Part shown: positions 3,001 to 41,420 of the stretch, piece after piece | Position numbering within the stretch: the stretch's first letter is position 1 | Layout of the letters: every line of letters starts with the position of its first letter | Source: an uncultured Eubacteriales bacterium | Lineage (GTDB): Bacteria; Acidobacteriota; Aminicenantia; Aminicenantales; UBA4085 | Direction of reading: 5' to 3' | DNA: 64,000 bases | Assembly: GCA_964537875.1 (NCBI GenBank) | Contig: CAZIDN010000009.1 | Location: 3,043 to 67,042 of the forward strand | The notes under the pieces: generated by a model | What the model was told of the DNA's origin: nothing | Seen by the model: the letters and a program-made list of their open reading frames with translations, nothing else | The model's database searches: none | Made by a program: the position numbers and the translations under genes

Positions 3001-3004
3001 TCAT
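1..3004 (-). CDS. RND efflux permease, AcrB/AcrD/AcrF family (3'-truncated by window edge)
   Basis: Not in the ORF track because it has no stop in the window. Manual translation from ATG 3004 gives MIEFFLRRPVFVAMVLTGLCLLGVISYLQLPMELFP..., and the left end reads ...RVRPILITAITTILGMLPVAMGKQ, both typical AcrB-family motifs. ATGA overlap with the upstream permease stop. Confidence 0.93.
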   Translation of the reverse strand, partial: MIEFFLRRPVFVAMVLTGLCLLGVISYLQLPMELFPQSESPRMVVIVRGGQSSDPGYVEQHAVIPIESAIAGLDKIERIETQIDQRRATIYVYYGKDVNLKYAYLKLQQCATAVRAQIGTEFTVAVSKADTEQLSNRYIVLQARGEGSLDQIRTVIDEKITPDLMSIDGVASVEVYGGRKRSIEVLLDEDAMKAYGLTVGQVSSKIAEQSGKRLYLGQAQDARKEYFVNLISEYTELPSIGDLVVKDKGPVVLNQIAKITEGGADEQTISRFNGQEAVTLSLQRSWEANLISLARQTRQAVTALNTKVKPDGISLVVAADEAKTIEDNMRSIMWLIVAGGLLAIAVLWLFLRNAALVLTVSASVPISILISMNIFYALHITINTLTMIGLAIAIGMLVDCSVVVLENIVRHASRTQDVRQAVVRGTTEVARAVFASTLTTIAVFLPFLFSTNTEVRTLGAQAGAAIITTLLISLAVAFFLIPVLADRFFSRREKRGARRPPSVRPMSRMRQIYTVLLKTCLRYPARTLAATVALFFLSLGLCLTLSVNVPREVQLLTFNVYATMTSGTTLEATDEQVKAMDALLTNIPEVADRLATIEEGSATFAFKLVDDFSRTSARTVTEIKDDIVSRLSRAYPRVEFSTTEPTQNSRYMGGSRGGGSGGGIGGGSGQQSGVSLTRLLGIGTAQEKVLVRGQDLGLLRSVAEDVQYNISNLDTVAGVRISVSNQSPSIDLLLDQASMSHFNVSLQAVRNELSGFQRETTSDIKFKAGNEEIDIILKSASEKEKKTEDLRRLQFPSTAGGLVPLQQLSRLVYSTGYSNINRVNQEKQVQVTYRFSGDIEQSKSLLEEARASVEDIVSSITPPPGVMIEVVRDESDMSEFYFMIALGILLIYMILASTFEAFRAPLVMMFTLPLAGIGAFSGLILTSNSLYNANVLVGFLILFGVVVNNGVLLIDYSRRLEQRKQRRERALMTAGLIRVRPILITAITTILGMLPVAMGKQ

Positions 3005-6000
3005 GCGTCGTCCTTTCCGGCGGCCCGTCGGCCTTCGATCAGCCGGTAGAGGGCGGGGATTACGACCAAGGTCAGAAGCGTCGAGCTGATCATCCCTCCA
3101 GTCACGGCAATCGCCATCGGCGCCCGGAGCGAGGCGCCTTCGCCGATCCCCAGAATCATCGGAACGAGGGCCAGGATCGTCGTCAGGCTCATCATGAGAA
3201 TAGGCCGGATCCGGTGCCGGCCGGCAAAGATGATGGCCTCGTCGAGCCCCATGCCGGCCCGCCGGCTCTGGTTGATGAGGTCGATGAGAATGACGGAATC
3301 ATTGTCGGCGATGCCGACCAGGATGATCAGACCGATGATCGATATGCTGCTGAACGGAACTCCCGCGACGAACATGAGAAGGATCGCCCCGACGCCGGCC
3401 AGAGGCATGATAAAAAGGACGATGAGGGGATGGACCAGCGACTCGAATTGGGCGGCTAAAACCATATAAATGAGGACGATGGCGAGGATCAAGGCGAATT
3501 TGAGGTTCTTGAACGACTCGCGGCGGAGGAGTTCCTCGCCGGCAATCGACATGAAATACCCCTCGGGCAGAACCGTGTCCTTGATCGCCTCTTTGACGCG
3601 TGAGACGACCTTGTCGAACGACGTTCGTCCGGCGAGCTGGGCCCGGACCTCGGCGACGCGCGTCTGATTGTTGCGGATGATCTCCCGGGGCGATTCCGTC
3701 CGGACCAGCCGGGCAACATCGCTCAGGGGAACGCGAAGACCGGAGGAAGCAACCAGGACGAGGTCCTGGAGCTTCCCGACGGAGACCTTCGGGTTGCGGA
3801 GCATGATCTTGATGTATTCGCCCTTATCCTCCAGCTCACCCAAGTCGCTGCCGGCGAGAACGTTTTTGACCTGGTTGCCGATCGTGTCCGCTCTCAAGGA
3901 ATATCGAGCCGCCTGCGCCTTATCCACTTGGATATCGACTTCGGGACGGCCCGCTTGAAAGTTCGTCTCGACATTGGCCAGTTCGGGAAGCTTGGTGAGC
4001 TTGTCCTTGACGCCGTCGGACAGCTTGATTAGAGTGTCCAGGCCCTTGCCTTTGATTTCGACGACGAGGGGGGCATCTTGGGTCCCCAGCGCCGTCTGCA
4101 GCGTCGTCTGCTGCTTGATGAACCGGACGGTTAGGTCCGGGATCGCCGACAATTCCTTTTCCAGACTGGCGATGACACCCTGGAGCGACGGGAGTGATTC
4201 CTTCTTGAAGCCGACCTGAAGGACGGCATTATTCTCATCTTCGAGAGCTTCAGCCGTTGTCTGAGCCGTTCCCTTGGGCCCAACCCGGGCGAAAATGCTG
4301 TCAATCAGGTCTCCGGCCCGCTGCTCGACCAGAGCTTCGATGTTCCGGACGGCGCCTTCCGTTCGCTCGAGCCCCGTACCTTCGGGAAGCCTCAACTGAA
4401 TGACCAATTCTTTCTGGGCTTCCTGGGGCATGAATTCGCTTCCCATGAAACGAAGGCAAAAAATCCCGACTGCGACGAAGGCGAGAGTGATCGAGACGAC
4501 GAGCCAGCGTTTTCGTAGGATTCCCTGGAGAATCCGGCCGTAAAAATTGAACCGGACGGATTTGGACGCGGCGACCATGCTCCGGGGCTTGATCACTCGG
4601 GAAAAAAGCATCGGGATGACGACCATGGCTACGAGTATCGACGAGAGGAGGGAAAAGGCGACCGTCCAGGCCTGGTCTTTGAAAAGTTCCCCTGCCACGC
4701 CGTGGAGGTAGACGATCGGGAAGAAGACGACGATCGTCGTCAAGGTGGCGCTGGTGATGGCCCCGCCGACTTCCCCCGCTCCCCGGACGGCAGCGTCTTT
4801 AATGGACATCCCGCTTTCGACATGGCGAAAGATATTTTCGCCGACGACGATGGCGTTGTCGACAAGCATGCCGACGCCGAGGGCCAGCCCTCCGAGCGTC
4901 ATAATGTTCAGGGTCAGGTTGTTGAAATACATCAAATTGAACGTGGCGACGACGGAGATGGGAATAGCCATGCCGATTATGGCCGTGACGCCGATCTTCC
5001 GGAGGAAGAAATAGAGGACGAGGATGGCCAGGATGCCGCCGATGATTCCCGCTTCCTCCACCTCGCCGATCGCCGCCTTGATGAAGCCCGCCTGATCCTG
5101 GATGATATGGATTTGGTATCCGGGCAATGACCGGCGCAAAGAATCCAGTTCGTCCCGGATAGTCTTCGAGGCGGCCGTCGTATTGGACCCCGCTTCTTTA
5201 TAGATCTCCAGGGCAATGGCCGGCCGGCCGTTGTAGCGGACGACGTTCTCCGGCTCGCTCAGAACGAACCGGACATCCGCCACGTCCCGGAGATAGATGG
5301 CAGTTCTTTCCGCCGGCTGCTGGCTCGTCGCCTCCTTTGTCTTGTAGGCGACGATGAGGTTTCTGATGTCATCGAGCGATGTCAGCTGGCCCACGCCTCG
5401 GATCGTGTAGCGGATCCCCATTTCGGTGATCGAGCCGCCCGAAAGGTTGCGGTTGAAGTTCTGGATCGTGGAGCCGAGCTGGTCCATGGTCAGGCCGCAG
5501 GATTCGAGGGTGTAGGCATCCGTTTTGACCTCGATCTCCCGTCGGCGGTCTCCCAGGAGCTCGACGGCGGCAACGCCGGGGAGGCGGATGAGCTCGTTTC
5601 GGATGTTGTTTTCCGCAGTCAGTCGCAGCTTGTCCAGGTCGGTGATTTCCTCATGAGCCAGGACGGCCGTTACGACGGGCTGGGCGTTGGGGTCGAGCTG
5701 GGTGACGGCGATGCTGTCGGCTCCGCTATTTTGGCCGAAATCGGCGACGGCCTTCTGCAGGTCGAGATAGGCCTCCTGCATATCCGTATTCCACTGGTAT
5801 TCGGAAGTGATCAAGGCTTTGCCGACGCGGGATAGGGACAAGACGTTGGTGACGTTCCGGCCACGGGAGGCGAGCGATTCAATCCTCTCCACGAACTGCT
5901 TCTCCATCTCCTCCGGCGGCCGTTCGCCCGCCTGGACTTCTATATACAGCCGAGGGCTGTTGATCCGGGGCAGGAGGTCAATCCCTAATCTTTGGTACGA

Positions 6001-6084
6001 AATGTACCCGAGAAGGAGGACGGCCAGGACGATCATGGCGACAGTCGTCGGATATTTGACCGCAAATCGAGCGAGCTTAAACAT
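3001..6084 (-). CDS. RND efflux permease, AcrB/AcrD/AcrF family
   Basis: 1027 aa with GVGMLVDNAIVVGENI, LAAQFESLVHP and RIRPILMMSLTTILAL motifs. Confidence 0.96.
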   Translation of the reverse strand: MFKLARFAVKYPTTVAMIVLAVLLLGYISYQRLGIDLLPRINSPRLYIEVQAGERPPEEMEKQFVERIESLASRGRNVTNVLSLSRVGKALITSEYQWNTDMQEAYLDLQKAVADFGQNSGADSIAVTQLDPNAQPVVTAVLAHEEITDLDKLRLTAENNIRNELIRLPGVAAVELLGDRRREIEVKTDAYTLESCGLTMDQLGSTIQNFNRNLSGGSITEMGIRYTIRGVGQLTSLDDIRNLIVAYKTKEATSQQPAERTAIYLRDVADVRFVLSEPENVVRYNGRPAIALEIYKEAGSNTTAASKTIRDELDSLRRSLPGYQIHIIQDQAGFIKAAIGEVEEAGIIGGILAILVLYFFLRKIGVTAIIGMAIPISVVATFNLMYFNNLTLNIMTLGGLALGVGMLVDNAIVVGENIFRHVESGMSIKDAAVRGAGEVGGAITSATLTTIVVFFPIVYLHGVAGELFKDQAWTVAFSLLSSILVAMVVIPMLFSRVIKPRSMVAASKSVRFNFYGRILQGILRKRWLVVSITLAFVAVGIFCLRFMGSEFMPQEAQKELVIQLRLPEGTGLERTEGAVRNIEALVEQRAGDLIDSIFARVGPKGTAQTTAEALEDENNAVLQVGFKKESLPSLQGVIASLEKELSAIPDLTVRFIKQQTTLQTALGTQDAPLVVEIKGKGLDTLIKLSDGVKDKLTKLPELANVETNFQAGRPEVDIQVDKAQAARYSLRADTIGNQVKNVLAGSDLGELEDKGEYIKIMLRNPKVSVGKLQDLVLVASSGLRVPLSDVARLVRTESPREIIRNNQTRVAEVRAQLAGRTSFDKVVSRVKEAIKDTVLPEGYFMSIAGEELLRRESFKNLKFALILAIVLIYMVLAAQFESLVHPLIVLFIMPLAGVGAILLMFVAGVPFSSISIIGLIILVGIADNDSVILIDLINQSRRAGMGLDEAIIFAGRHRIRPILMMSLTTILALVPMILGIGEGASLRAPMAIAVTGGMISSTLLTLVVIPALYRLIEGRRAAGKDDA

Positions 6085-6092
6085 CGTCGACC

Positions 6093-7157
6093 CTATTCGA
6101 TGATCCTGACCCGGGCGTTTGTGCGCAGCGTCTCAAAGCCTTCGGTCACGACGCGGTCCGACGCCTTGAGACCGCTTGTCACTTCGGCCTCATCGACGTT
6201 TTCGATGCCGGTCTGGATCCTCCTTTCGAGGGCAATGCCCCGCTCGACGACAAATACGGTCTTGGCGCCGCGGCGGTCGAGGATGATGGATTTGGGGATG
6301 ACCAAGACCGCGGTCTTTTCCTGGACGATCACGTCCGTCTTGATGAAGCTGCCCGGCTTGAGGCGGAGGCCGGGATTGGGGATCTCGATCCTCAGCTTGA
6401 ACATGCGGCTCTCTGCGTCGAGAGCGGGAGAGATCTGGGTCAGGATCCCCGAGAGGGCCGTGTTGGGCTGGCTGTAATCGGTGACCAGGACTCGCTGGCC
6501 CTGGGACAGCCGGTCCATCTCCTTGCCGGGCAGGGTCAGGTCGGCATAGAGGCGGGAATAGTCCATGATCCGGATGACAAGCGTATTCGATTCGATCCAT
6601 TGGCCGTCGGTGAAATGAGGCAGGTCGACGACGACCCCGTCGAAAGGAGCCCTGACCTCGAGCTTCTTCAGCGCCAGCAAGGAGTTTTCGAAGCTGTAGG
6701 TCGAGTCGATGAAAGCCCTTTGGGCGTCGGCCAGCTCCTTGAGAGTGATTCCCCCTTTTTCATAGACGCCCTGCTGCTTGGTGTATTCCCGCTGGGCGGA
6801 TTCGTGCTGCAGCTTTTTAGACTCAAAGGCGACTTGGTTCACAAATTCGGGATTCTCCAGGGAAATCAGGATTTCATCCTTCTTGACGCCGTCCCTCATC
6901 CGGAACGGCTGGCCCGTCCGGGCGTTGGTCCGGAGAAGATACCGGCCCGCCTGCTCGGTTTTGAGCTGGACGTCGCGGATGGGGAAGGCCGTTCCGGTCG
7001 CGGCCACGAACTCCTGAATAGCCTTGGGCTTGAGCTCGGCGGCCTTGACCGTGATGGTCGTCTCCGTATCCACGCTGAGGGTTTCCTGCTTGCAGCTCCA
7101 GAACGCCAGGAGGGCTGTCAGGCTGAGAAAGGCGATCGTTGTTTTCTTCACGGGCAT
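6093..7157 (-). CDS. RND periplasmic adaptor (membrane fusion protein), probable lipoprotein
   Basis: Start moved to ATG 7157 (AGGAGG RBS). Lipobox-like FWSC, biotinyl-like RAPFDGVV and the MFP C-terminus (GLKASDRVVTEG). Confidence 0.92.
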   Translation of the reverse strand: MPVKKTTIAFLSLTALLAFWSCKQETLSVDTETTITVKAAELKPKAIQEFVAATGTAFPIRDVQLKTEQAGRYLLRTNARTGQPFRMRDGVKKDEILISLENPEFVNQVAFESKKLQHESAQREYTKQQGVYEKGGITLKELADAQRAFIDSTYSFENSLLALKKLEVRAPFDGVVVDLPHFTDGQWIESNTLVIRIMDYSRLYADLTLPGKEMDRLSQGQRVLVTDYSQPNTALSGILTQISPALDAESRMFKLRIEIPNPGLRLKPGSFIKTDVIVQEKTAVLVIPKSIILDRRGAKTVFVVERGIALERRIQTGIENVDEAEVTSGLKASDRVVTEGFETLRTNARVRIIE

Positions 7158-7161
7158 CCTC

Positions 7162-8664
7162 CTACATCTTTTCGACGATGGAAACATTTTTATCGAAATC
7201 CCAGAGGGAACGGATCTTGATATCCAGAAGGGCCAGCTTATAGTTGATCAGGGCCGAAACCTCGTTGAGCTTCTGAGTGGAGAGCTGCTGCTGGTAGAAT
7301 TGCATATCCTTGGACGAAAGATCGCCGCTCTTGTATCGCTCGAGGTTGATCTCATAGGTCAATTGGGCATTCTTGGTGTTCTTTTCGGCGATCTCGATCT
7401 GCCGCTTTTGGTTCAGCAAACTGCGGTAGGCCTGCCGGATATCAAGCTGGATCTGTTTTCTCTGTTCCTCAAGGGAAAGTTTCTGGGTGTCCACCTGGGC
7501 CTGGGTGGCCGCCAGGACGTGTTTCTTTTGGCCCCAGTCGAAAACCGGAATGTTCAGGGTGAGGGCGACCACCTGGTCGACGTTCGGGGAGCCGTAAATG
7601 TTTTGGAAGGCTTTATTGACGCCGGTCAAACCCACGGTGAGATCCACCTGGGCTTTGAATTCATTCTGCGCTCCGGCCTGGATGAGGTCGTTGAGGGCAG
7701 TCTGGATGGAGATATCCCTTTGGCGGAGCTCCATCCGGCTGGCCAGGCCATGGGCGATGGCCTTTTGGAGGTCGACATCCACAAGATACTTGCGGATGTC
7801 GGTCACGATCTCGATCTCCTGGTCCAGATACATTCCGATCAGGATCTTGAAGCTGTCCATAGCGTTCTCGTACTGGATCTGCTTGTTTTCGAGAGCGGCC
7901 TGGCTGCTTAATCGGGTCAGGTCGGCCTGATAAAGCTCTCCTTGAGCGGCGATCCCGGCCTGGACTTTGCTTTCGATGATTTTCAACTGTTCGTCGGCGT
8001 TCTTGGATTCTTCCTGGGCGATTTTAACGCCTTCCCGGCTGTAATAAAGGTTGAGGAACTGCTGGGTGACCTGACGTTCGATGGAAAGCTTTTGGAGGGC
8101 GTAATTTAGCCGGGAGTTTTCCAGGGATAGCTCGAGCTCCTCGATCTGCATCTGGGTCCGGTTATAGGTGAATAGGGGCTGGCTGAATTTTAAAAACAGG
8201 GAGTTGTTATACGCGCCCGCCTTGTTACCGCCGACAAACGAACTCGAAGACTCCTGCCAGTTGAAGCTGTCGGTGACCGTCAGGGTGCCGTCCGTCCATT
8301 TGATGGGCTGACGAATGGAAAAGCTGGCGGCCGTCCTGGTGACGCTCTGGGTATTGTAGCTCGAAGTCAGCTCGCTAAAGGTCTTTGTGTCCGAAAGATT
8401 GAGGGGATTGAGGGTGAGGCTGAACTGGGATTTCAACCCGGCCTGTTGGGCCTTGAGGTTTTCTCCGCTGGTCTGCAGCCGGTAAGCGGCCTCCTTGATG
8501 GAGGGACTGTTGCGAAAGGCGAATTCCAGGGCCTTGTCCAGAGTCAAAATCTCCTGCGCCGCGAGCGGCAGAAGAAGAAGAAAGATCAAACCTCCCGCTA
8601 AAAGGCCGAGCCGTACAGTCCTATGATCCCGGGTGCTGGAGAAACTTTTCGCGCTTTTTATCAT
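7162..8664 (-). CDS. TolC family outer membrane efflux protein
   Basis: LTLDKALEFA N-terminus, LTLNIPVFDWG and NLERYKSG helical repeats. Start placed at ATG 8664 (GGAG RBS). Confidence 0.9.
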   Translation of the reverse strand: MIKSAKSFSSTRDHRTVRLGLLAGGLIFLLLLPLAAQEILTLDKALEFAFRNSPSIKEAAYRLQTSGENLKAQQAGLKSQFSLTLNPLNLSDTKTFSELTSSYNTQSVTRTAASFSIRQPIKWTDGTLTVTDSFNWQESSSSFVGGNKAGAYNNSLFLKFSQPLFTYNRTQMQIEELELSLENSRLNYALQKLSIERQVTQQFLNLYYSREGVKIAQEESKNADEQLKIIESKVQAGIAAQGELYQADLTRLSSQAALENKQIQYENAMDSFKILIGMYLDQEIEIVTDIRKYLVDVDLQKAIAHGLASRMELRQRDISIQTALNDLIQAGAQNEFKAQVDLTVGLTGVNKAFQNIYGSPNVDQVVALTLNIPVFDWGQKKHVLAATQAQVDTQKLSLEEQRKQIQLDIRQAYRSLLNQKRQIEIAEKNTKNAQLTYEINLERYKSGDLSSKDMQFYQQQLSTQKLNEVSALINYKLALLDIKIRSLWDFDKNVSIVEKM

Positions 8665-8708
8665 AGCTTTCGCTCCTGATATGATATTCGACGGTCCTTC
8701 GAAGAGCG

Positions 8709-11700
8709 CTATTTTTGTTGGACCCACTTGATGGCGTCCGCCAAAACAAAACGCTCCTCGTTTTTGTCCGTCAATTCGACTAGATTCTCGCCGGCCGCCA
8801 GCCGGAAATTTCCGATGAGGGTCCAGCCGGCCGGCACGTCCCTGAGGTCAACGATAACCTCTTCGACCCGGCCCTCGTGATAAATCAGGAAATGCTTTTT
8901 GCCCGGCTGCAGCCGCGGCACATTGAAGCCCCGGCCTGCCGCCTGTGTTCCCGCCGTGGTTCCACTCCCGCGCTGGCCGCCCGAGGGCGGGGCTCCCCCC
9001 ATGGCGAAGCCGCCGCGGCCTAACGCCATCACGTTTCCTCCCCGGCCCATGCCCGCGCCGATCCCTTCGTAATAAAAATAAATGCTATACTCTCCGGCCT
9101 GGTCGAGATGGACCGTCCAGGCGACCTTGCTCACGCCTTGGCCGGATTTCTTGACAAACGCGGAGCGGACGAATCGGCCGAAGAAATTCTGGATGATCAA
9201 GGGTTCCCAATGATCGGGCGGATTTAGCAAACTGCCGAACGTCCCATAGTCTGCCTCGCTTTGATCAGGCACAAAAATACGGCGGACCGTGCTTCGCAGC
9301 CAATTTTCCCGCCCCTTGTCGGCAAGCTTGAAACCCGCGTCTTCATTGTCGACGATGTATTCTCCTTCTGCTCCGGGCGAGGCCGGGATATAAGGTCGAG
9401 CCGATTCGCCGTCGAACGGCTTGACGCCCGGCTTCGGCTGTTGATTGCTGAAGGGAAGGGTGAACATCCCGGGCAGGTTGCGCGACATCGTGGTATCGAT
9501 CGTTGTCATGGCCGATGCCTGATCCAGGACAATGCCAACCGCTTTGACGGTCTGGGCGGGCACGAGGACCGTGCGCGTTTCCGGCGCCGAGGCCGACACC
9601 CCCATCACGCCGCCCATTCCGCCTCCGCCCCGGGCGCCGAAACCGCCCATCGTGGCCAGATTGACCTTGATGACGCCTTCCTGGTTCGTTGGATTCGTTA
9701 CCTGGAATTTGATCTGGAACTTAGTCTTTTCTTTGTCGATGACTCGGTAGCTCTGGACGTCGTCGAACAGGAAGCCCGGCAAACCCTTCTGCTCGTACCA
9801 GGACGCGATCGTTTTGTCTAGATCCAAACGTCCCAGGCCGGCGATGAAATCCTCCAAGGATTTTCGGGTGATCGGCTTGAAACGCCGGTCCTTGAGAAAC
9901 GCGATCAGCCGGTCGTCGAAGTCGGCCGCCCCGAGCTTGGCCCGGATGAGAATCAAAAGAGCCTTTCCTTTTTGCTGCAGAATCGGGATGACCGGCTGGT
10001 TCTCCCGGCCGGAGAGTCGAATCGCCTCGGCCAAAGAATGGTCCATCAGAAACTTGTTGATTTCATTCTGGAGCGTGTTGCTCCCCTGGCCGAGGCGCAT
10101 CGGGCCTAAAGTGGGTGAACCGGCCCGCTCCTGAAGGTAAGATTCCAGCGCATAGCCGAAGAGAGGCCACTCCGCGATATTGAGGGGAGAAGCGTAGGCC
10201 ACGAAATTGGGGAAAATATTGAAGGCGGCTTCGGAATTCGTCTCGACCAGGAAGCCCAGGGGAGCCCGCTGCTGGCCGCCGAATAGACCCGGCTGCGTCG
10301 CGATCAGGTTGGATTGGATAAAACGGTTGAACAAGACGCGCTGAATGTCCTTCGGACTTATTTGGCCGCCTGCTCTCGCCGTCATCGCCCGTTGGCCCGC
10401 CGCTCCGGCCCGACCGCCCAGGCCTGCCATCAGGCCGGCCCTGAATTCGGCCCCGGCGCACAGGACTCCCATTTCTGGCAGAAAAACCAACTGCGGCTGG
10501 ACGTGCTCCTGGGCCATGGTCCAAAGCCGGTTATAGCTGGTGATATGGATCGGAATTTCGACGAGAGAAAGCTGTTTGTAGGGATAATTCAAGCCCAGTA
10601 CGACCTCATATCCGTCTTTAATCTGCTTAATCAGCTGGGGCAAATCCCCGGCGATTTCCTTAAGCTTGGGCGTGAATCGGTCGTGCCCGTCAAGGAGCAA
10701 AAGAGAATATTGGACTCCATCCACCGTGACGGTTTTTTTCTCGTAACGGCCCAAAGTCAGGGAGATTTGGGGAAGAAGAGTCTCCGGTTGAAAGACATAA
10801 GTTTTTTTTCGGCCGGCGTTTTCGATTGTCGGAATGCCCTGAGAAATGGCCGTCAAGTTCTCAGGCGTCTCGACGGACAGGGTAAAGCGGCTATTATCTT
10901 TCTTCATGAGCGAGGGGAAGAGCAGAGATTCGGGAAGCCCCGGCCGCGGATACCAGCCGCATTCAGGAGTCAGATGGACAAAATCCGGACTGATCACGGC
11001 ATAGCGCTTGGGTACGGAAACCATCCATATCTTGAGGGGCGTATCGCGTTTCGTATCGTCGATATCCAGGTAGCAATAGCCTTCGTCGATCGTCCCCGAA
11101 TAAGACAGCGAGAGACGGATCTCGCTGCCCGGCGGAATCAGTTCCTTCGCCTCGACGGCGACGAGATGATGATTTTTGCGATAGGGCAGCGCGCCGGATT
11201 CGCCCTTGAGCTCGCTGATCCGGAGCCCCGGATTGAGAGAAAGATAGATCGTTTTCAGGGCAACATCATTGTTGTTGGCCAGGGTGAGATCGGCCGTTGC
11301 GGTAATCGTTTTTCCTTCATGACGCAGGCGGATATTGCAGCCGAGAAGGGTCAGCGCCGGCTTCTCTGCTACTTCCCGGCTCTCTGCTTTAATCGCTTTT
11401 CGCAAATCCCGGGCCGTAGTGACGCCGTGAAGATACGTATAGCCGAGTCCGGCCGCCGCGGCGACGGCGAGCAGGGCCAGAATCCCCAGAATCCTGTTCA
11501 ACCCGGGAGACTGGCGCAGCCTTTTCATGAGCAGGGCGGAAATCAGGATCAATCCCGCGCCCAGGAAAAAGTACATCCCTCGGAGAAGAACGAGCTGGGG
11601 CAGATTGCCCAGGCCGATAAAATCCGAGTACATGACCGGCGTGTAAAAAGCGAAGCTGTCAAAGGCAAAAGAGTAACGGGGACCGATCACGATCAGGGAG

Positions 11701-12263
11701 AGGAATATGTAGGATAGGGTCAGAAGATAGATGATCGCTTGACTGCGGATCAAGGAGCCGATAAAGATCGGCAGCCCGATCATGAAGACAAGGGTCGGCA
11801 GGCTGAGGAGCCCGACGTAAAGAAGATATGAGGACCCGGCAAAAAGCGTGTGGGAAAAAAAGACGTGGATGATGAAGGTGATGAGAAGGACGACGAAATT
11901 CAAGACGGCGAACACGCCGAAGATGCCCAAAAATTTCCCCAGCATATATTGCCCGTTGGAAAAAGAATGGGCGAAAATCACTTCAGACGTATCCTGCTTC
12001 CGGTCGCGCTTCAGGAATTCCGTGGCCAGGAATACGGCCATGATCCCCTGAAAGACATTGAGGAGCTTGATGACGATCAGAGGAAAAGCCCCGGAAAGCG
12101 CCCGGCTGAAGTAGAAGCCCGAATAGGCGGGCAGGGCGATAGTGACCATGACCAGGATCAGGACGGCCACGGCTAATCCGGAAAAGATGCGGAATCCCCA
12201 AGAACGGAGAAGCAGTTTGGCTTCATACCGGGCGATGCTTGCGACAGTTTGTGTGGCGCTCAT
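8709..12263 (-). CDS. Large ABC-2-type permease fused to an M1-aminopeptidase-like ectodomain (no HExxH) and a C-terminal golvesin/xanthan-lyase-like beta domain
   Basis: About 7 N-terminal hydrophobic segments (IARYEAKLLLRS...KRDRK...QYMLGKFLG), a large soluble region, and a C-terminal GWTLIGNFRLAAGENLVELTD...ADAIKW. Lies directly after the ABC ATPase. Domain calls are by motif recognition. Confidence 0.72.
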   Translation of the reverse strand: MSATQTVASIARYEAKLLLRSWGFRIFSGLAVAVLILVMVTIALPAYSGFYFSRALSGAFPLIVIKLLNVFQGIMAVFLATEFLKRDRKQDTSEVIFAHSFSNGQYMLGKFLGIFGVFAVLNFVVLLITFIIHVFFSHTLFAGSSYLLYVGLLSLPTLVFMIGLPIFIGSLIRSQAIIYLLTLSYIFLSLIVIGPRYSFAFDSFAFYTPVMYSDFIGLGNLPQLVLLRGMYFFLGAGLILISALLMKRLRQSPGLNRILGILALLAVAAAAGLGYTYLHGVTTARDLRKAIKAESREVAEKPALTLLGCNIRLRHEGKTITATADLTLANNNDVALKTIYLSLNPGLRISELKGESGALPYRKNHHLVAVEAKELIPPGSEIRLSLSYSGTIDEGYCYLDIDDTKRDTPLKIWMVSVPKRYAVISPDFVHLTPECGWYPRPGLPESLLFPSLMKKDNSRFTLSVETPENLTAISQGIPTIENAGRKKTYVFQPETLLPQISLTLGRYEKKTVTVDGVQYSLLLLDGHDRFTPKLKEIAGDLPQLIKQIKDGYEVVLGLNYPYKQLSLVEIPIHITSYNRLWTMAQEHVQPQLVFLPEMGVLCAGAEFRAGLMAGLGGRAGAAGQRAMTARAGGQISPKDIQRVLFNRFIQSNLIATQPGLFGGQQRAPLGFLVETNSEAAFNIFPNFVAYASPLNIAEWPLFGYALESYLQERAGSPTLGPMRLGQGSNTLQNEINKFLMDHSLAEAIRLSGRENQPVIPILQQKGKALLILIRAKLGAADFDDRLIAFLKDRRFKPITRKSLEDFIAGLGRLDLDKTIASWYEQKGLPGFLFDDVQSYRVIDKEKTKFQIKFQVTNPTNQEGVIKVNLATMGGFGARGGGGMGGVMGVSASAPETRTVLVPAQTVKAVGIVLDQASAMTTIDTTMSRNLPGMFTLPFSNQQPKPGVKPFDGESARPYIPASPGAEGEYIVDNEDAGFKLADKGRENWLRSTVRRIFVPDQSEADYGTFGSLLNPPDHWEPLIIQNFFGRFVRSAFVKKSGQGVSKVAWTVHLDQAGEYSIYFYYEGIGAGMGRGGNVMALGRGGFAMGGAPPSGGQRGSGTTAGTQAAGRGFNVPRLQPGKKHFLIYHEGRVEEVIVDLRDVPAGWTLIGNFRLAAGENLVELTDKNEERFVLADAIKWVQQK

Positions 12264-12310
12264 TCCCAGGCTCCTCTATGACGAATTAAAATAGTAGTCT
12301 TTGGAGGCGA

Positions 12311-12504
12311 CTAATATCAACGCAATAAAATGACATCCCCGTATGGGCAGCGCATAGGCCGTCCTAAAGCCCCCGTAGCGGAGGGGGGCCCCGTCGGCTT
12401 TTCCGACGGGGGGAACCGACGGGACTGGTTCCCCCGGGCCCGGGGGCTAAGGGCGGCCTATGCGCCGCCCAGACATTGTCACTTTATTTATTACGTTTGT
12501 ATTA
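12311..12504. mobile_element. ~195-bp MITE/REP-like element, copy 1 (imperfect TIRs, internal IRs and hairpin core)
   Basis: Termini (C)TAATATCAACGCAATA and TATTACGTTTGTATTA; inner IR 12344-12374/12442-12471; homologous to 63557-63755. Confidence 0.75.
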
Positions 12505-13404
12505 ATGTTGGCCGTCTGCGGACTGCATGAAGTAAACATAGGCGTCCTCGAGGTTGGGTTCCACAGACTCCGCCGGGCCGTCGGCATAATTTTCCGCGAC
12601 GATGCGGAGCTCATAGCCGGCCTCCGAGGGAACCGCCGAGATCACTTGATACTTAGTCTTGAAAAAGTCCAGTTCCTGGGAGGTAATCGAGGCCTTCCAG
12701 ACCTTCCCCTGGACCTTGGCCGCCAATTCCGCCGGGGTGCCGTTGAAGACGAGGTTGCCTTCGTTCAACAGGGCAATCCGGGAGCAGGTGGAGGAGATAT
12801 CGCCCACGATGTGCGTAGAGAGAAGAATGACCTTTTCCTGCCGGGAAAGATCGGAGAGGAGATTGCGAAACCGAACCCGTTCCTCAGGGTCCAGGCCGAC
12901 TGTCGGCTCATCGATGATCATGATCTGGGGATCGCTGATCAGGGTCTGGGCGATTCCCAGCCGGCGCTTCATTCCTCCCGAGAGCTTGCTGGCTTTGCGG
13001 TCCCGCGCCTCATAGAGCCCGACGTCTTCGAGCGTTTTTTCAATCAGAGTATGCCGCCTTGACCTGGGGCGAATCCCCCTCAGGCAGCCCACGTAGTCCA
13101 GAAACTCCCAGACAGTCAGTCTGGCAAATGAGGTGAATTCCTGGGGCAGGTAACCTGTCAGCTGACGGATCTTCTTGCGGTCTTTCCCTAGATCCAGGCC
13201 GTTGATCAGGACCCGGCCGGCTGTGGGTTTGAGAAGAGTTACCAGGATTCGGATGAGGGTGGTCTTCCCGGCGCCATTGGGGCCGAGAAGACCGAACATT
13301 CCCTTTTCGATGTCCAGATTGACATCTTTGAGCGCGACGGTGTTTCCCGGATAGCGATGAGTCAAACCTCGGATTGTAATAGGGGATCTGCTTTCTTCAG
13401 GCAT
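12502..13404 (-). CDS. ABC transporter ATP-binding protein
   Basis: Walker A GPNGAGKTT, signature LSGGMKRR, Walker B IIDEPT, H-loop STHI. Confidence 0.97.
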   Translation of the reverse strand: MPEESRSPITIRGLTHRYPGNTVALKDVNLDIEKGMFGLLGPNGAGKTTLIRILVTLLKPTAGRVLINGLDLGKDRKKIRQLTGYLPQEFTSFARLTVWEFLDYVGCLRGIRPRSRRHTLIEKTLEDVGLYEARDRKASKLSGGMKRRLGIAQTLISDPQIMIIDEPTVGLDPEERVRFRNLLSDLSRQEKVILLSTHIVGDISSTCSRIALLNEGNLVFNGTPAELAAKVQGKVWKASITSQELDFFKTKYQVISAVPSEAGYELRIVAENYADGPAESVEPNLEDAYVYFMQSADGQH

Positions 13405-13854: not shown

Positions 13855-15162
13855 ATGAAAGACGACCCTCGCCAACACTTTCTCAGCCGCCGCAATTTCA
13901 TGAAATGGACGGTCGGCGGCGCTTTTTCGACTTTGCTCATCCGATCCCCCCGTTTTTTCAGGACGGACGCCGCAGCCCAGAACTCCCTGTTCTCCGTGAG
14001 CGAAATCCCCGGAAATCCTTTTTACAGCCAACTGAGCCCGAACAACCACGCCGGAATCGACTGCCTGCTTTTCCTGATGGGAAACAACGGCCTCAAGTTT
14101 TACCGGTCCAACGTGACGGGGCCGGTCTCCGGGCCCCTCGGAATGATCGCCTCCAACGATGTGGTCTTGATCAAAGTCAACGCCCAGTGGAAATACAGGG
14201 GCGCCACCAACAGCGACCTCGTCCGCGGCCTCGTCCAGGCCATCGTCAGCCATCGGGACGGCTTCACCGGCGAGATCGTGATCTTTGAAAATGGCCAGGG
14301 ACGGGGCAGCCTCAACTGCGACACATCGGCCAGCTATTCGGACAACCTCGTCCATGCCAACGCCCTCAACGAAAGCCATTCTTTTCTTTACATGGTCGAT
14401 CATATTTTCAAAGACTCCCGGGTTTCGGCCTTCCTGCTCGATACGATCCGCGACAGGTTCATCAACCGTGATGACCATGTCACCAACGGCTATCGAATAT
14501 TGGAAAATGTCTCCTATCCCTGTTTTACCACGAGGCGCGGCACCCGTGTGGAGCTCCGGGAGGGCGTGTGGAACGGCAGCGGCTATGACCAGAACCTCAA
14601 GCTCATCAACATCCCTGTTCTCAAGACCCACGGCGGGTCCGAGATCACGGCTTCACTCAAGCATTTTTACGGCGTCCTGAGCATGAACGACGGGAACAGC
14701 GGATACCGCCATTACGCCGGGTTGGGAGAGACGTGCGGAAAGATGGTTGTTTCCGTCCGACCTCCGGTCCTGAACCTCATGGATGCGATCTGGGTGTCGC
14801 ATGAATCTCTCACGGGTTATCCGGCGAGCACCACCTTCAACGCCAACCGGATCGTCGCCAGCCAGGACCCGGTCGCCCTGGACTATTGGGCTGCCAAGAA
14901 CATCCTTTATCCGATCAACAAGAACTACAACCATCACCCCGACAATGCGACCATCCAAGACTGGCTATATGTGGCCCAAGGCTTTATCAACAACCGGGGC
15001 GGGCTCTATAGCCCTCAGAGCGGAATCCTGGTCGACAAAGTCAGTAAAAACGAATCGGAGATGGCCGTCTATTTCGACAGCGCCATAAGTTTCATCCAAA
15101 ACGGGCCGAACGCGATCCCCCGAGAGTTCAAGGATCGGGAGCGCCAGAGAAGAAGATTCTAG
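13855..15162 (+). CDS. DUF362 domain protein with twin-arginine signal
   Basis: SRRNFMK Tat motif; DVVLIKVN, NIPVLKTHG, ITASLKHFYG and DPVALD motifs typical of DUF362; GGAGG RBS. Confidence 0.85.
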   Translation: MKDDPRQHFLSRRNFMKWTVGGAFSTLLIRSPRFFRTDAAAQNSLFSVSEIPGNPFYSQLSPNNHAGIDCLLFLMGNNGLKFYRSNVTGPVSGPLGMIASNDVVLIKVNAQWKYRGATNSDLVRGLVQAIVSHRDGFTGEIVIFENGQGRGSLNCDTSASYSDNLVHANALNESHSFLYMVDHIFKDSRVSAFLLDTIRDRFINRDDHVTNGYRILENVSYPCFTTRRGTRVELREGVWNGSGYDQNLKLINIPVLKTHGGSEITASLKHFYGVLSMNDGNSGYRHYAGLGETCGKMVVSVRPPVLNLMDAIWVSHESLTGYPASTTFNANRIVASQDPVALDYWAAKNILYPINKNYNHHPDNATIQDWLYVAQGFINNRGGLYSPQSGILVDKVSKNESEMAVYFDSAISFIQNGPNAIPREFKDRERQRRRF

Positions 15163-16835: not shown

Positions 16836-17002
16836 TCAGCCATTCTTATCAGGCCTCCTTTTTTGCCCTCAAGTATATATTTTCATCTTCGCTGATTTCA
16901 ACTTTTAAAATCTCGATGTCTAGCTTATCTAAAATAGCTTGTGTTTGCCCGGCTGCGCCGCTTTCAATATAATCTTGATTTCATCGGGTTCAGGAGGTGA
17001 AC

Positions 17003-18349
17003 ATGGCCAGAACCATAAGATTCGGAATCTATGCCGCGGCAAGCCTTATGGTATGTATCATTCTAATCGCCCGGACGGCTCCGGCGCAGAAGAAAAGCTA
17101 TGACCTGTTCGAGACGCCCAAGCGCTGCGCCCAGTGCCACAAGGATATCTATATCCAGTGGAAGCAGGCCATGATGTCTCAGGCCTACACTCACCACTGG
17201 GATGAGATCGAATATTTCAAGCTGGCGCTTCCCCAGGCGGAAAAAGACCCCAAAGTGGCCGAGATCAAGGGCGGCTGCAACGGCTGCCACGCGCCCTCGG
17301 CCCTGTTCATCGGGGACGTTCCTCCCCAGCCTCCCTCGGCCAACACCCGGGCTAATGAATCCGTCTTCTGCGACGTCTGTCACACCATCTCCGGCTTCAA
17401 CGGTGATACGCCCTTCAATTTCAACTATATCCTGACTCCCGGAAAGACGAAGTTCGGCCCGCGCCAGGGTGTCGTCTCGCCGCATCACGACACCAAGTAC
17501 TCCGACTTCATCAAATCGCCGGACTACTGTGGCACCTGTCATAACGAAAAAAACCCTTTCGGCATCTGGGTCAAATCCACTCATCTGGAGTGGAAGGAAG
17601 GGCCTTATTCAAAACAGGGCGTGCGGTGCCAGGACTGCCATATGTGGCACGCTCCCGGGAAGAGCGCCGATATGGGCGAGCCCTTGCCGGATATGGCCAA
17701 CCATAATTTCCCCGGCGGGCATGTGATGGCCAAGCTGCGCGGCGCGATCGAGATAAAGGTTTATGCCGATGCCGAGGAACTTGTGCCGGGAGACAAGACA
17801 GTGATCAGTGTTCATCTCTACAACGCTAAGGCGGGACACAAGGTTCCGACGGGTTCGGCCGAGGAACGCCAGCTCTGGCTTGAAGTCAATGCCGTCGACG
17901 CAAAAGGCACCCGCTATGTGCTTCCCGTGGATAAAAAGGGATTCAAGGGCGAGGAATACACGATCACGTCCAATGTCCTCGCTTACCAGGACATGGGCGA
18001 TATGATGATGGGCATCCCGGATTTTAAAGGCGTCAAGAGGGATGACATCGAGGAAGGCCACCGCATATTCCGGCTTCCCTATTTTGATCCCAAGGGCCGG
18101 CTGACCATCGGCCAGTGGAACACGGCCTCGCTGGGCGCGGACTACCGGATCGGGCCGCGCGAGACAAAGATCGAGACCTACACCTGGACGCTTCCCCAGA
18201 CGCTGCCGGAGGGGAACCTGCGCATCGAGGCCAAGCTGCGGTATCGCCTGCTTGTCAAATCCGTGGCCGAATTCCTCAAGGTTCCGGCCGATGAATACGA
18301 GATCAAGGAAGTCAACGCGGCCGAAGCCGATGTCAAGATTGTCTATTAA
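17003..18349 (+). CDS. Exported pentaheme c-type cytochrome (cytochrome c554-like)
   Basis: Signal peptide and five CxxCH motifs (CAQCH, CNGCH, CDVCH, CGTCH, CQDCH). AGGAGG RBS before ATG 17003. Confidence 0.9.
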   Translation: MARTIRFGIYAAASLMVCIILIARTAPAQKKSYDLFETPKRCAQCHKDIYIQWKQAMMSQAYTHHWDEIEYFKLALPQAEKDPKVAEIKGGCNGCHAPSALFIGDVPPQPPSANTRANESVFCDVCHTISGFNGDTPFNFNYILTPGKTKFGPRQGVVSPHHDTKYSDFIKSPDYCGTCHNEKNPFGIWVKSTHLEWKEGPYSKQGVRCQDCHMWHAPGKSADMGEPLPDMANHNFPGGHVMAKLRGAIEIKVYADAEELVPGDKTVISVHLYNAKAGHKVPTGSAEERQLWLEVNAVDAKGTRYVLPVDKKGFKGEEYTITSNVLAYQDMGDMMMGIPDFKGVKRDDIEEGHRIFRLPYFDPKGRLTIGQWNTASLGADYRIGPRETKIETYTWTLPQTLPEGNLRIEAKLRYRLLVKSVAEFLKVPADEYEIKEVNAAEADVKIVY

Positions 18350-18469
18350 AAAATGTCATGGCGAAGGAAGCCTGGCCAGCTCAGAAATGGAAGAGATGGC
18401 CACGGCCTGAAGCGCCTGGTTTGGACAAAGATCGAGATAGATTTCGGAAATCCGTTTTAAGGAGCCGAT

Positions 18470-19612
18470 ATGAAAAAAATATGCGTCTTTTTTCTAGCTG
18501 TTTTTCTGCTGGCCCGGTTGGCCGCGGCCATTCCCGCCTTCGCCCGCAAATACGGATATTCCTGCGAAGTCTGCCATGCTCCTATTCCCCATCTCAAGGC
18601 GTTCGGCGAGGAATTCATGGATAACGGCTACCGCATCCCCGACAAAGAGCCGCCCCGGGCCACGATCGACACGGGCGATCCGATCCTGCTGCTCCAGCGG
18701 GAGCTTCCTCTCGCCTTTCGCTTCGACGGCTTTCTCGCCTACGAGCCCAAGTCGGACATCAAGCCAGACCTCAAATCGCCGTTCGTGATGAAGATCCTCA
18801 GCGGCGGCAATATCTCCAACTCGATTTCCTATTACGCCTACTTCCTGATGACCGAGGAGGGAAAAATCGCCGGACTTGAAGACACTTATCTAGCCTTCCG
18901 GAATGTTTTTGGGACACCGATCTCTGTCGTTTTCGGGCAGTACCGCGTTTCCGACCCGGTCAAGCCGTCCGAGATCCGGCTGACCTTCGAGGAATATAAG
19001 ATCTTTAAGTTTGCGATCGGGCAAAGCCAGATCAACCTTTCCTACGACCGGGGAATCCTGGGAAGCTATAGCACCAAGTTCGGGACGGACATCGTCCTTC
19101 AGGTCGTCAACGGCAACGGCATCGACACGCCGGACATCTTCGACAAGGACAAGTACAAAAGCTTCGTCTGGAGGATCGCCCAAAGCTTCAGAAAAAAGAA
19201 GGTCAAAATCGGCCTGCTCGGGTATCATGGCAAGGAAGAGGAGGGCGGGGCGACAAACACGGTGAACTATTTCGGCCCCGATATTCGGGTGCGCCTGCCC
19301 AAGGTGGAACTGATGTTCCAGTTTGTCCGAAGGTCGGACACCAACCCTTATTTTGCGGGCACCGAGGAAAAACACAACACGGACGCCTACCTGGGCGAGA
19401 TCATTCTCAGCCCCTGGGGCGAAAAAGGCCGCTGGTTCTTTACGACGGCCTATAACCGGATTAAATCCGACTTCATAGGGCACGACTACCAGACGCTCAC
19501 GGTGAATGCCAGCTATCTCTTACGGCGCAATGTCAAGTGGATGAACGAGTACACCCGTGACCTGGAGGGCCGGAACCATCGCTGGCTGACCGGCTTTATC
19601 GTCGGGATATAA
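18470..19612 (+). CDS. Monoheme cytochrome c fused to an outer-membrane beta-barrel (Cyc2-like)
   Basis: Signal peptide, then IPAFARKYGYSCEVCHAPIPHL (PxFAR[QK][TY]-x3-CxxCH-x3-PxL). The remainder has alternating beta-strand character and ends HRWLTGFIVGI. Confidence 0.75.
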   Translation: MKKICVFFLAVFLLARLAAAIPAFARKYGYSCEVCHAPIPHLKAFGEEFMDNGYRIPDKEPPRATIDTGDPILLLQRELPLAFRFDGFLAYEPKSDIKPDLKSPFVMKILSGGNISNSISYYAYFLMTEEGKIAGLEDTYLAFRNVFGTPISVVFGQYRVSDPVKPSEIRLTFEEYKIFKFAIGQSQINLSYDRGILGSYSTKFGTDIVLQVVNGNGIDTPDIFDKDKYKSFVWRIAQSFRKKKVKIGLLGYHGKEEEGGATNTVNYFGPDIRVRLPKVELMFQFVRRSDTNPYFAGTEEKHNTDAYLGEIILSPWGEKGRWFFTTAYNRIKSDFIGHDYQTLTVNASYLLRRNVKWMNEYTRDLEGRNHRWLTGFIVGI

Positions 19613-32565: not shown

Positions 32566-32853
32566 TCACCTTTCCCAATATTGTTTCTGCTCGGTACGGG
32601 TTGCCTTACGAGCGGATATGATTCTGATGACATTCTCGGCTTTTCGATAGCAATGACAAACGATCAACAACCTCAGCTTGAAGCTCATCCCGAGAAGAAC
32701 AAATCGATCTTCTTCAAGGGAATGGTCCGGATCATGGATCAACAAGGCGTTCTCATCCAGGAAGACCGTTTGAGCTTCTTCAAAGGAAATGCCGTGCTTC
32801 TTTTTATTGGAAATGCTCTTCTTCTCATCCCATTCGAAGCATAGCTCACTCAT
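32566..32853 (-). CDS. brnT: BrnT family ribonuclease toxin
   Basis: FEWDEKKSISNKKKHGISFEEA...HSLEEDRF...RIISARKAT. Confidence 0.93.
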   Translation of the reverse strand: MSELCFEWDEKKSISNKKKHGISFEEAQTVFLDENALLIHDPDHSLEEDRFVLLGMSFKLRLLIVCHCYRKAENVIRIISARKATRTEQKQYWER

Positions 32854-36014: not shown

Positions 36015-36039
36015 CCTTCGCTCTCCTCCTCGTTCATCT

Positions 36040-37004
36040 TCAATATTCGACTTTGGTTTCCACGGTAAAAAACCGGTAATTCTCATATCGGATCTCCGTC
36101 TTCGTCTGCGTGAACCCGCTGCTTCTCGAGCCCGAATATTTTTCATTAAAGACAGTCCGGCTGGGAAACCTCAGGCCGTTCTTAAGAATTCCGTATTCAT
36201 GAACCGTGGTCAAGATGGGCTTCAATCCTCGGCTTTTTGCAGCCTCCAGGATTTTTTCAAAACCGGCCAGGGATTGATCTTCTACTTCCATCTTAATAAC
36301 GCTCGAATCTGTCTTATCCACCCAGAGAGTCCCATAATTGGGCTTGCCTTCGATCGAGACCTTGGGCTTCGCTTTGATGACATAGGTTTCCCGGCCCCCG
36401 ACCCGATCCTGTTTGATAAATTCATAATCATAAATATCATGCCACTCGCGCCCAAAAAATCCCACCGGCCCGAAAACGGCTTTCCGGGAAAAAAATCTCT
36501 GTGTCTTCAGGTGCGCGTTCTTCAGATTTTTCTTTCGTCCATTTTCTTCGAGCAGCGTCCTTGTCTCTTCGATAGTCTCGCCCTTTTTCACAAGCTGATA
36601 ATCATAAACATATGAATTCCTGTTCGCCCTGCGCTTGAAGGAGGGAGCGGTTCCATAAGTGATGGCTGCTCCCTCTCCTCCTGACACGACCACTGTCCCT
36701 CCGCTGCGGAATTCATAAATATCCTCTTTGATCTTCTCCTGGCAGATAAAAAAAGCGCGGAACTGGCCAATTTCCGGCAATACTCCGCACAATTCTGGAG
36801 GATGGCAGTCATATCCGGACGGCTCGAAGCTGACGATTTTTGCGGATTCTTTTCAGGAATAATGCCTGCAGAGGCTGTCTGCGATTCTCGATCCAGCCTG
36901 AAATCCGTAAGCGCGGAGAAACTCGCTGAAACCGGAACAGAGATCCAAGGGGCTATGAGAAAGAAGCCGATAAGCAAACTCAAGAAACGGTTTCTATTTT
37001 TCAT
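36040..37004 (-). pseudogene. VWA-partner paralog 2, split by a one-base frameshift in a T7 run
   Basis: ORF 37004-36588 carries the signal peptide and CAEYCRKLASSALF. ORF 36792-36040 carries FICQEKIKE onward. One extra T at 36748-36754 joins them in frame, matching the paralogs. Confidence 0.8.
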
Positions 37005-37023
37005 CGCCCTTCTCCTTTACGCC

Positions 37024-37089
37024 GGGGTCAAACCTACTCATTACGCAAGTTCCCCTGGAGAATTGCGCGTAACGAGTAGGTTTGACCCC
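37024..37089. repeat. 66-bp REP-like palindrome
   Basis: GGGGTCAAACCTACTC...GAGTAGGTTTGACCCC. Confidence 0.9.
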
Positions 37090-37101
37090 CATTTATTGAA
37101 T

Positions 37102-38040: not shown

Positions 38041-38049
38041 GGTTTTCCC

Positions 38050-40071: not shown

Positions 40072-40193
40072 ATCAAGGCTCCGAAATCCCCTGGTTTCCG
40101 CATAATTGCTGTTTTTTTTATCATAGCGCTAATTGGCACGATAAGAAATTGTTAGGAAAAAGTTTTTGCCTGGACATCTGTGCCCTAAGTTGC

Positions 40194-40210
40194 AGCATTA
40201 AATGTGCCAA
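40194..40210 (-). promoter_or_regulatory. sigma54 (-24/-12)-type promoter upstream of VWA paralog 2
   Basis: Minus strand TTGGCACATTTAATGCT (GG-N10-GC), conserved in the paralogous upstream region at 43626-43642. Confidence 0.6.
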
Positions 40211-40480: not shown

Positions 40481-40483
40481 GGT

Positions 40484-41401: not shown

Positions 41402-41420
41402 TTCTACCCTCCTCTCCCTT

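Follow-up and report, generated by a model that had tools for sequence, protein, structure and literature searches.

Tools such as FeGenie take Cyc2 as the marker of iron oxidation by microbes, and its frequent presence in organisms that do not oxidise iron is an acknowledged puzzle (PMC8406198). What such a protein does outside the iron oxidisers is the question raised by two adjacent genes in a 64,000-nucleotide stretch of contig CAZIDN010000009.1 (assembly GCA_964537875.1, positions 3,043 to 67,042), referred to here as the window. The first, ORF A (17003..18349, + strand), encodes a putative periplasmic pentahaem cytochrome c of 448 aa; the second, ORF B (18470..19612, + strand), encodes a candidate Cyc2-type fused monohaem cytochrome-porin of 380 aa. 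The two genes probably constitute one operon for a minimal redox module that has six haems and spans the outer membrane. An earlier note on this DNA had supposed the host to be a probably anaerobic heterotroph; this fits the closest homologues of the pair, which are labelled 'Candidatus Aminicenantes/Aminicenantales' (Acidobacteriota) and are up to 95% (ORF B) and 97% (ORF A) identical. Taxonomic labels of relatives are throughout those of the deposited metagenome-assembled genomes (MAGs).

The fused cytochrome-porin and its pentahaem partner

The published definition of Cyc2 (Keffer 2021, PMC8406198) asks for a signal peptide, a single CXXCH motif preceded by AXPXFAR[Q/K][T/Y] and followed by PXL, no fewer than 365 aa, and a porin of 16 strands like OprO/OprP. 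Judged from its sequence and its predicted structure, ORF B belongs to the Cyc2 family on every one of these counts, as the note had proposed. The N-terminus reads MKKICVFFLAVFLLARLAAA|IPAFARKYGYSCEVCHAPIPHL and contains a single CxxCH. A signal peptide with a basic n-region, a hydrophobic core and an A-x-A site was recognised by inspection (MKKICVFFLAVFLLARLAAA|IPAF) and from invariant alignment columns; it covers residues 1-20 (…RLAAA|IPAF; 18470..18529, + strand), and the mature protein would begin at the invariant I21-P22. The Cyc2 signature, as defined in PMC8406198, lies at 18527..18595 (+ strand) and comprises A20-IPAFARKY28, GYS, C32-EVCH36, API and P40-HL42. The pattern PAFARKY-x3-CxxCH-x3-PxL previously read here is thus present exactly, in the form AIPAFARKY-x3-CEVCH-x3-PHL; the AXPXFAR[Q/K][T/Y] motif ends three residues ahead of C32, and PXL is provided by P40-H-L42, after H36-API, with P40 and L42 both invariant. 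Across 57 aligned homologues I21, P22, F24, R26, C32, C35 and H36 were likewise invariant, and exactly one CXXCH was found in each of 74 relatives taken from genome loci. A conserved LKAFGEEFxxNGY follows directly after the signature, and the haem domain is the most conserved part of the protein.

The remainder of ORF B had been described as barrel-like, and the structural prediction bore this out. The AlphaFold2 (AF2) model, built from the 57-sequence alignment, contained 16 beta strands between residues 81 and 379 (18710..19606, + strand), with a mean predicted local distance difference test score (pLDDT) of 74.6 that was mostly 80-92 beyond about residue 230. The strands were delimited from AF2 secondary structure, conservation and Foldseek porin matches; the best PDB matches were the 16-strand porins OmpM1, Omp32, OmpF/OmpC-type and OprP (E ~1e-9), and they included OprP 2O4V and OprO 4RJX, OprP and OprO being the structural homologues cited for Cyc2PV-1 (PMC8406198). 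ORF B ends in a hydrophobic stretch, and 66 of the 74 relatives have a C-terminal Phe. Such a terminal Phe is usual in outer-membrane barrels. Between strands 5 and 6 there is a long, highly conserved loop (residues ~160-191), the longest conserved segment that is not a strand, and Q157, D162, P163, E168, T172 and Y176 are invariant in this region. By analogy with classical porins, the loop would occupy the position of the pore-constricting L3 and may line the lumen near the haem. Scans of Pfam and NCBIfam produced no model matching ORF B, a PDB sequence search with its profile returned nothing meaningful, and the distant representatives that were looked up are annotated as 'hypothetical protein'.

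ORF B was compared with Cyc2-like proteins from Caballeronia, Ralstonia and Methylocystis replicons. These were reached through a stepping-stone query, P0315, a tblastn search of ORF B against plasmids having given no match. Motif spacing was identical between ORF B and all three. In Caballeronia the gene has the surroundings typical of classical Cyc2, with HiPIP on one side and a c-type cytochrome on the other. Similarity was concentrated at the N-terminus: the ORF B family profile scored ~40 bits over the first ~55 residues alone, and hhalign aligned 135 columns, corresponding to the cytochrome domain plus the first strands (probability 97.7%, E = 1.6e-12). Since the profiles align over just this region, the ORF B barrel must have diverged deeply from those of the proteobacterial proteins; deep divergence of the barrel between Cyc2 clusters is the pattern found in the literature also.

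ORF A was listed as 16997-18349 from a GTG codon, and its residue numbers count from that GTG. The start was placed at the ATG at 17003, in agreement with the note, because a Shine-Dalgarno sequence, AGGAGG (16992..16997, + strand, read from the sequence), sits 5 nt ahead of it and the closest homologues are 448 aa long. The N-terminus, MARTIRFGIYAAASLMVCIILIARTAPA|QKK, was recognised by inspection as a Sec signal peptide. It is followed by the five CxxCH motifs reported before (CAQCH, CNGCH, CDVCH, CGTCH and CQDCH), at residues 44, 94, 125, 178 and 211 (17126-17140, 17276-17290, 17369-17383, 17528-17542 and 17627-17641, + strand), where ~0.0006 would be expected by chance in 448 aa of the window's composition. 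The last ~200 residues contain no haem motif. The AF2 model (pLDDT 87.1) has a helical five-haem domain and then a C-terminal Ig-like beta-sandwich. Apart from the haem motifs and one residue in the signal peptide, ORF A has no cysteines; neither a lipobox nor a secretion-tail domain was found. Five histidines outside the motifs (66, 164, 236, 242 and 281) are invariant in the family, enough for five bis-His haems; from the sequence, an all-bis-His and hence low-potential ligation may be supposed. With a mean column identity of 67%, the family is unusually conserved across phyla. Pfam and NCBIfam gave only generic or below-cutoff cytochrome matches to ORF A, the Pfam MtrC/MtrF model being among those below cutoff.

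The multihaem partner of the earlier note stands, therefore, as a linked pentahaem cytochrome, but it is not a generic one: ORF A is a member of the pentahaem and Ig-like family that contains cytochrome c552 (5ZE8) and ExtKL/MccSep. The only full-length fold match to ORF A in the PDB was 5ZE8 (Foldseek E = 7.9e-20, TM 0.58/0.67, 21% identity), and hmmsearch with the ORF A profile also retrieved it (E = 6.5e-15), in three stretches along the whole chain. The fold is known from 5ZE8, from MccSep and from the 'PHC family' of cable bacteria (PMC11976967, PMC13510729).

A separate observation concerns the counting of haems in this family. The first haem motif was CxxxCH (e.g., CGSSCH) in 29 of 62 pentahaem relatives (L011-L090), and again in L006 (6001-7350) and L007 (6001-7347). 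With the first motif in this form in about half of the relatives of ORF A, simple CxxCH counting would score those proteins as tetrahaem.

Conservation of the gene pair

The earlier note had described adjacent, co-oriented genes, and both do lie on the + strand, separated by a 120-nt spacer in which there was no terminator-like site. Species-representative genomes were scanned with the ORF B alignment, which detected relatives in at least 574 species-level genomes; the 80 best-scoring loci, which are not a random sample, were examined. A pentahaem gene lay directly upstream and on the same strand in 68 of the 69 loci that had room upstream, at gaps of 15-254 nt, and in the remaining locus (L071) it was found ~3.2 kb upstream of the Cyc2-like gene. 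The reverse test, in which metagenome contigs were searched with the ORF A alignment and the best-scoring loci taken, gave the same proportion: a Cyc2-like gene was directly downstream in 68 of 69 loci with room downstream, the sole exception (L172, pentahaem gene at 2830-4260) having htpG next instead. Linkage to a multihaem gene, noticed at first in one genome, thus extends in both directions, and individually inspected loci at 42-61% identity agree with it. Neither of the outcomes by which the note would have been refuted, a C-terminal region that forms no beta-barrel and a want of linkage to multihaem genes in other genomes, was observed. Relatives of ORF A showed 51-72% identity and those of ORF B 38-63%. 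No other gene family recurred in more than 7 of the 80 loci, and there was no conserved third gene, whether quinol dehydrogenase, oxidase or regulator.

The hosts include Aminicenantes, Holophagae, Ignavibacteria, Melioribacteraceae, Bacteroidales/Rikenellaceae, Cytophagia, Calditrichota and Zixibacteria, as well as KSB1, Latescibacterota, Krumholzibacteria, Gemmatimonadota, Fermentibacteria and Fibrobacteraceae; they are mostly anaerobic or facultative organoheterotrophs of sediments. Across many phyla, ORF A and ORF B form a near-obligate two-gene cassette, inherited as a unit. Rosettibacter primus 4148-Me, an isolate in culture, has this cassette, as does a MAG attributed to Melioribacter roseus, itself a cultured species. 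One KSB1 MAG (L005, 6681-7496) has a pentahaem gene truncated at 272 aa, by frameshift or assembly error, downstream of a CcmF-like haem lyase gene.

The stepping-stone query belongs to a second family of cytochrome-porins, with the motif 'FARQY', whose hosts are Chromatiales, Gallionellaceae, Thiobacillaceae, Acidiferrobacterales and Nitrospinota. Its members (P0315 and P0418-P0536) are 61-88% identical across orders. The P0315-like family and that of ORF B are homologous over their full length (hhalign probability 100%, E = 8.8e-67, 352 columns, 31% identity) and have in common the barrel motifs GQFQVSD…RE.RLT, YDRG, VNGNGI and FDND; the P0315-like proteins are longer, at ~430 aa against the 380 aa of ORF B. 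Surveys of 'cyc2' may include this sister family too.

Electron flow and competing explanations

If the pair functions as a conduit, ORF B would leave the cytoplasm and form a porin of 16 strands in the outer membrane, and its N-terminal monohaem domain of ~40 residues would be held at or in the periplasmic mouth, or in the lumen, of the pore. ORF A would be the dedicated, soluble, periplasmic partner of this haem and would dock with it physically. A small soluble redox species would enter the pore and pass single electrons to or from the porin haem, presumably the only redox centre that reaches solute inside the pore, and the five haems of ORF A would relay or buffer electrons to or from an electron-transport chain encoded elsewhere. 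A barrel of 16 strands has no room for a multihaem protein inside it. As has been proposed for Cyc2, the substrate must be small and soluble. The outer-membrane electron conduit suggested before accords with this architecture, provided that it is not taken for a sheath of the MtrAB kind, which 16 strands do not allow; a conduit role for the ORF B subfamily is what we infer from its sequence and model. Within this explanation, outward flow to soluble or chelated Fe(III), or to similar small acceptors, was placed slightly ahead of inward flow from Fe(II) oxidation. This lean reflects the hosts being mostly anaerobic or facultative organoheterotrophs, and the relatives of ORF A being a low-potential cytochrome and a reductase.

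Several observations weigh against the conduit. At the two P0315-like loci inspected (L091 and L092), the gene stood alone in a housekeeping-like context with no cytochrome neighbour; porin-haem proteins can therefore apparently work without a pentahaem partner, and the partnership would be specific to the Acidobacteriota/FCB-type subfamily, given that its sister stands alone. The cytochrome domain of ORF B had an AF2 pLDDT below 50, as expected of a model that lacks the cofactor, and this bears on the placement of the haem relative to the pore. Among the 57 sequences of the ORF B family, H36 was the only Met or His to be invariant or nearly so, and thus the sixth ligand of the porin haem is not evident from the alignment; this haem may be unusual or ligand-binding, not a simple relay. 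The conservation of ORF A, which is higher than that of ORF B and extends to the former active-site loop of MccSep, suits an enzyme better than a passive shuttle. Finally, neither an inner-membrane quinol dehydrogenase nor a terminal oxidase was linked to the cassette, in the window or in the 80 loci.

The competitor that survives best is the inward-flow version of the conduit, an iron oxidase pathway in which ORF B would oxidise dissolved Fe2+ in the pore and ORF A would replace dihaem Cyc1 or rusticyanin as the periplasmic acceptor, passing electrons to an oxidase or to a nitrate/nitrite reductase for supplementary energy or for Fe(II) detoxification. This is rather unlikely, although it deserves serious consideration. 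Fe2+ is the abundant soluble form of iron in anoxic sediment, and a single haem in a narrow pore would meet soluble species alone. Moreover, all Cyc2 proteins tested biochemically oxidise Fe(II) (PMC8406198, PMC7005843), and cyc2 in MAGs of Aminicenantes and Krumholzibacteria has been read in that way. The known partners of Cyc2, however, are high-potential proteins (His/Met c4-type cytochromes, HiPIP and rusticyanin), as the Caballeronia locus illustrates, and ORF A, seemingly bis-His throughout, has a low-potential cytochrome among its relatives; transfer to ORF A from a haem near +200 mV would consequently be uphill. Many host lineages, among them Ignavibacteria, Melioribacter and Gemmatimonadota, do contain facultative aerobes or reducers of nitrate or nitrite, and M. 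roseus possesses oxidases of the cbb3, caa3 and bd types (PMC5492636); but most hosts ferment or are anaerobic heterotrophs, not lithotrophs, and no oxidase accompanied the cassette in the 80 loci.

A further explanation, by analogy with ExtI and MccSep, would make ORF A an enzyme and ORF B its gate for sulfur, selenium or nitrogen species; a haem of ORF A would act on the substrate, a small inorganic one, and the porin haem would have a sensing, gating or auxiliary electron role. This we regard as improbable. ExtKL of Geobacter sulfurreducens is MccSep, a periplasmic, tetrameric polysulfide/selenite reductase (PDB 9WT8/9WT9; Mihara 2026, PMC13510729). Its catalysis needs Sec325, and Cys239 as the distal ligand of haem 2, the variants U325A, U325C and C239H being severely impaired (PMC13510729). 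The porin ExtI accompanies it in the Geobacter ExtHIJKL cluster (PMC13510729, PMC11976967), so that there is precedent for a catalytic member of this family beside a porin gene. ORF A has the architecture of MccSep, and the loop equivalent to that of Sec325 is nearly invariant: …NHAGHSIPDGU… in MccSep aligns with N276-AKAGHKVPTG-S287 in ORF A, with …AGH-x-x-P-x-G-[U/S]… common to both, and N276, K278, G280, H281, K282, P284, G286, S287, E289, R291 and W294 were present in 55 of 55 sequences of the ORF A alignment. The overall conservation of ORF A across phyla, and the want of an invariant Met or His as sixth ligand of the ORF B haem, also speak for this explanation.

The residues essential to MccSep are nonetheless gone. 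In the HMMER alignment to 9WT9, which is weak (E = 0.037), the residue opposite U325 is Ser287 (codon 17855..17857, + strand, numbered from the GTG at 16997); it was Ser in 55 of 55 aligned homologues, and in the genome-locus relatives it was Ser in 55 and Ala in one (n = 56). The Sec/Cys of the D-G-[U/C]-P loop was accordingly absent from ORF A, with an invariant Ser in its place. The region aligned to Cys239 reads W-V-K-S-T-H and has no Cys, position 194 being S/T/A, in a register that this weak alignment leaves uncertain. The NCBIfam model for ExtKL (NF040886) scored 61.4 bits on ORF A against a cutoff of 250, over residues 153-305 alone, and with the Sec/Cys tests failed the identification of ORF A as MccSep/ExtKL was rejected. 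Furthermore, the five additional invariant histidines fit five bis-His haems, leaving no open coordination site, and a substrate gate would not need a Cyc2 haem domain, yet it is this domain that ORF B conserves best.

Two other candidates fell away: a sheath of the MtrAB type (16 strands against a barrel of at least 20, and no surface cytochrome gene), and reductive iron uptake, considered since TonB-receptor genes lay near two loci but not recurrent in the 80. A nanowire role for ORF A, like that suggested for related pentahaem cytochromes of cable bacteria (PMC11976967), found no support in a protein with no secretion signal beyond Sec.

Genomic setting and comparison with known systems

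Upstream of ORF A, a consensus scan identified a promoter-like site, TTGCCC-17-TATAAT (16945..16973, + strand; 10/12 matches, a pattern match alone), within a 161-nt divergent intergenic region that has an aldehyde dehydrogenase gene on its other side. A second Shine-Dalgarno sequence, AAGGAG, was read before ORF B (18459..18464, + strand). Other neighbours of the cassette in the window are genes for RND efflux, an ABC transporter, a DUF362/TAT protein, a racemase-like protein and an ECF sigma/anti-sigma pair; like the aldehyde dehydrogenase gene, these are unrelated to the cassette and are not its conserved partners in other genomes. Among them, the DUF362-domain protein (13855-15162, + strand; ~1.8 kb upstream of the pair) bears a weak signal of the twin-arginine type. 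Further upstream, an RND efflux operon (3001-8727) precedes a gene for a 1184-aa membrane protein with a C-terminal Golvesin-like domain, which adjoins that of an ABC-transporter ATPase (8709-13404, - strand).

Elsewhere in the window, at 33966-43505 (- strand) and 44063-47432, there are three secreted proteins without Pfam matches (726, 673 and 694 aa), each followed by a protein of 305-324 aa, one of which had a weak LolA-like match. These sets look like tandem paralogous pairs. They begin in a low-GC stretch at 32-38 kb, where GC is 0.49-0.51 compared with 0.55-0.59 across most of the window, and they adjoin genes for a TolC-like outer-membrane efflux protein and a radical SAM/SPASM enzyme. 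A gene for a BrnT ribonuclease toxin was identified at 32566-32853 (- strand; Pfam E = 3e-29), and two small genes that overlap (103 and 135 aa) are laid out like an antitoxin and its toxin at 56591-57300 (+ strand).

Cyc2 genes have already been reported from MAGs of Aminicenantes, Ignavibacteriaceae, Bacteroidetes and Krumholzibacteria, and were read there as iron-oxidation potential; those reported in Aminicenantes by users of FeGenie may belong to the ORF B subfamily. What is new here is not the presence of Cyc2 in Aminicenantes but the near-obligate pentahaem partnership, established by synteny. An incomplete search of the open-access literature found no description of a Cyc2 and pentahaem pairing, of a Ser-type pentahaem subfamily, or of a stand-alone proteobacterial sister family. 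With a Cyc2-type gene locked to one conserved pentahaem partner in a large set of lineages, there is a discrete and testable module, and the only characterised member of the partner's family is a periplasmic sulfur/selenium reductase. The handles available are the R. primus isolate, the species M. roseus with its MAG, the solved structure of a homologue (5ZE8), and an expression protocol proven for Cyc2PV-1; the question of what Cyc2 does outside the iron oxidisers thereby becomes experimentally tractable.

Caution is advisable when such cyc2 matches in sediment metagenomes are read as iron oxidation. A wider generalisation, possible but put forward tentatively, is that most 'cyc2' matches in heterotrophs of anoxic sediment (Aminicenantes, Ignavibacteria, Bacteroidales, Zixibacteria, KSB1, Latescibacterota, Krumholzibacteria and others) represent the six-haem cassette and not Fe(II) oxidation. 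A Ser-type descendant of the MccSep/c552 pentahaem enzymes would in that case be combined with a haem-bearing pore in a very widespread system that had gone unrecognised, either to deliver electrons to small soluble acceptors or for the conversion of a small inorganic substrate in the periplasm. If this were true, the iron-oxidation potential of such habitats, where it is based on counts of cyc2, would be systematically mis-assigned.

Among characterised proteins, ORF B most resembles Cyc2 of Acidithiobacillus ferrooxidans, Cyt572 of Leptospirillum and Cyc2PV-1 of Mariprofundus ferrooxydans, with which it shares the signal peptide, the single CXXCH, motif spacing, PXL, length and a predicted 16-strand porin; those three exchange electrons with dissolved Fe (PMC8406198). 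It differs in being at the short end of the family, in having hosts that are anaerobic or facultative heterotrophs, and in its partner, which is a cytochrome of putative pentahaem bis-His type, where the known partners are Cyc1/c4, HiPIP and rusticyanin. ORF A resembles the low-potential pentahaem cytochrome c552 of Thermochromatium tepidum (5ZE8), in which a five-haem helical domain is likewise joined to an Ig-like domain, and for which a role in sulfur metabolism has been suggested (PMC11976967); c552 has Cys at the position of Ser194 and Ala at that of Ser287. MccSep, too, is a periplasmic pentahaem protein with an Ig-like 'stem' and an adjoining porin gene, as is the case for ORF A, but the porin ExtI has no haem domain, unlike ORF B. 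In MtrCAB/MtoAB/PioAB, and in the Pcc/Ext systems of Geobacter, a periplasmic multihaem gene adjoins the gene for an outer-membrane barrel, just as it does in the cassette, and electron transfer across that membrane is the presumed role of both. The total of six haems in the cassette would fall below the neighbourhood threshold of 15 applied by MHCscan (PMC11475568). In the MtrCAB-type systems a deca- or octahaem wire runs inside a large barrel, and a lipoprotein cytochrome is usually present at the surface, whereas the cassette combines a predicted 16-strand barrel, bearing its own single haem, with the five haems of ORF A and has no surface cytochrome.

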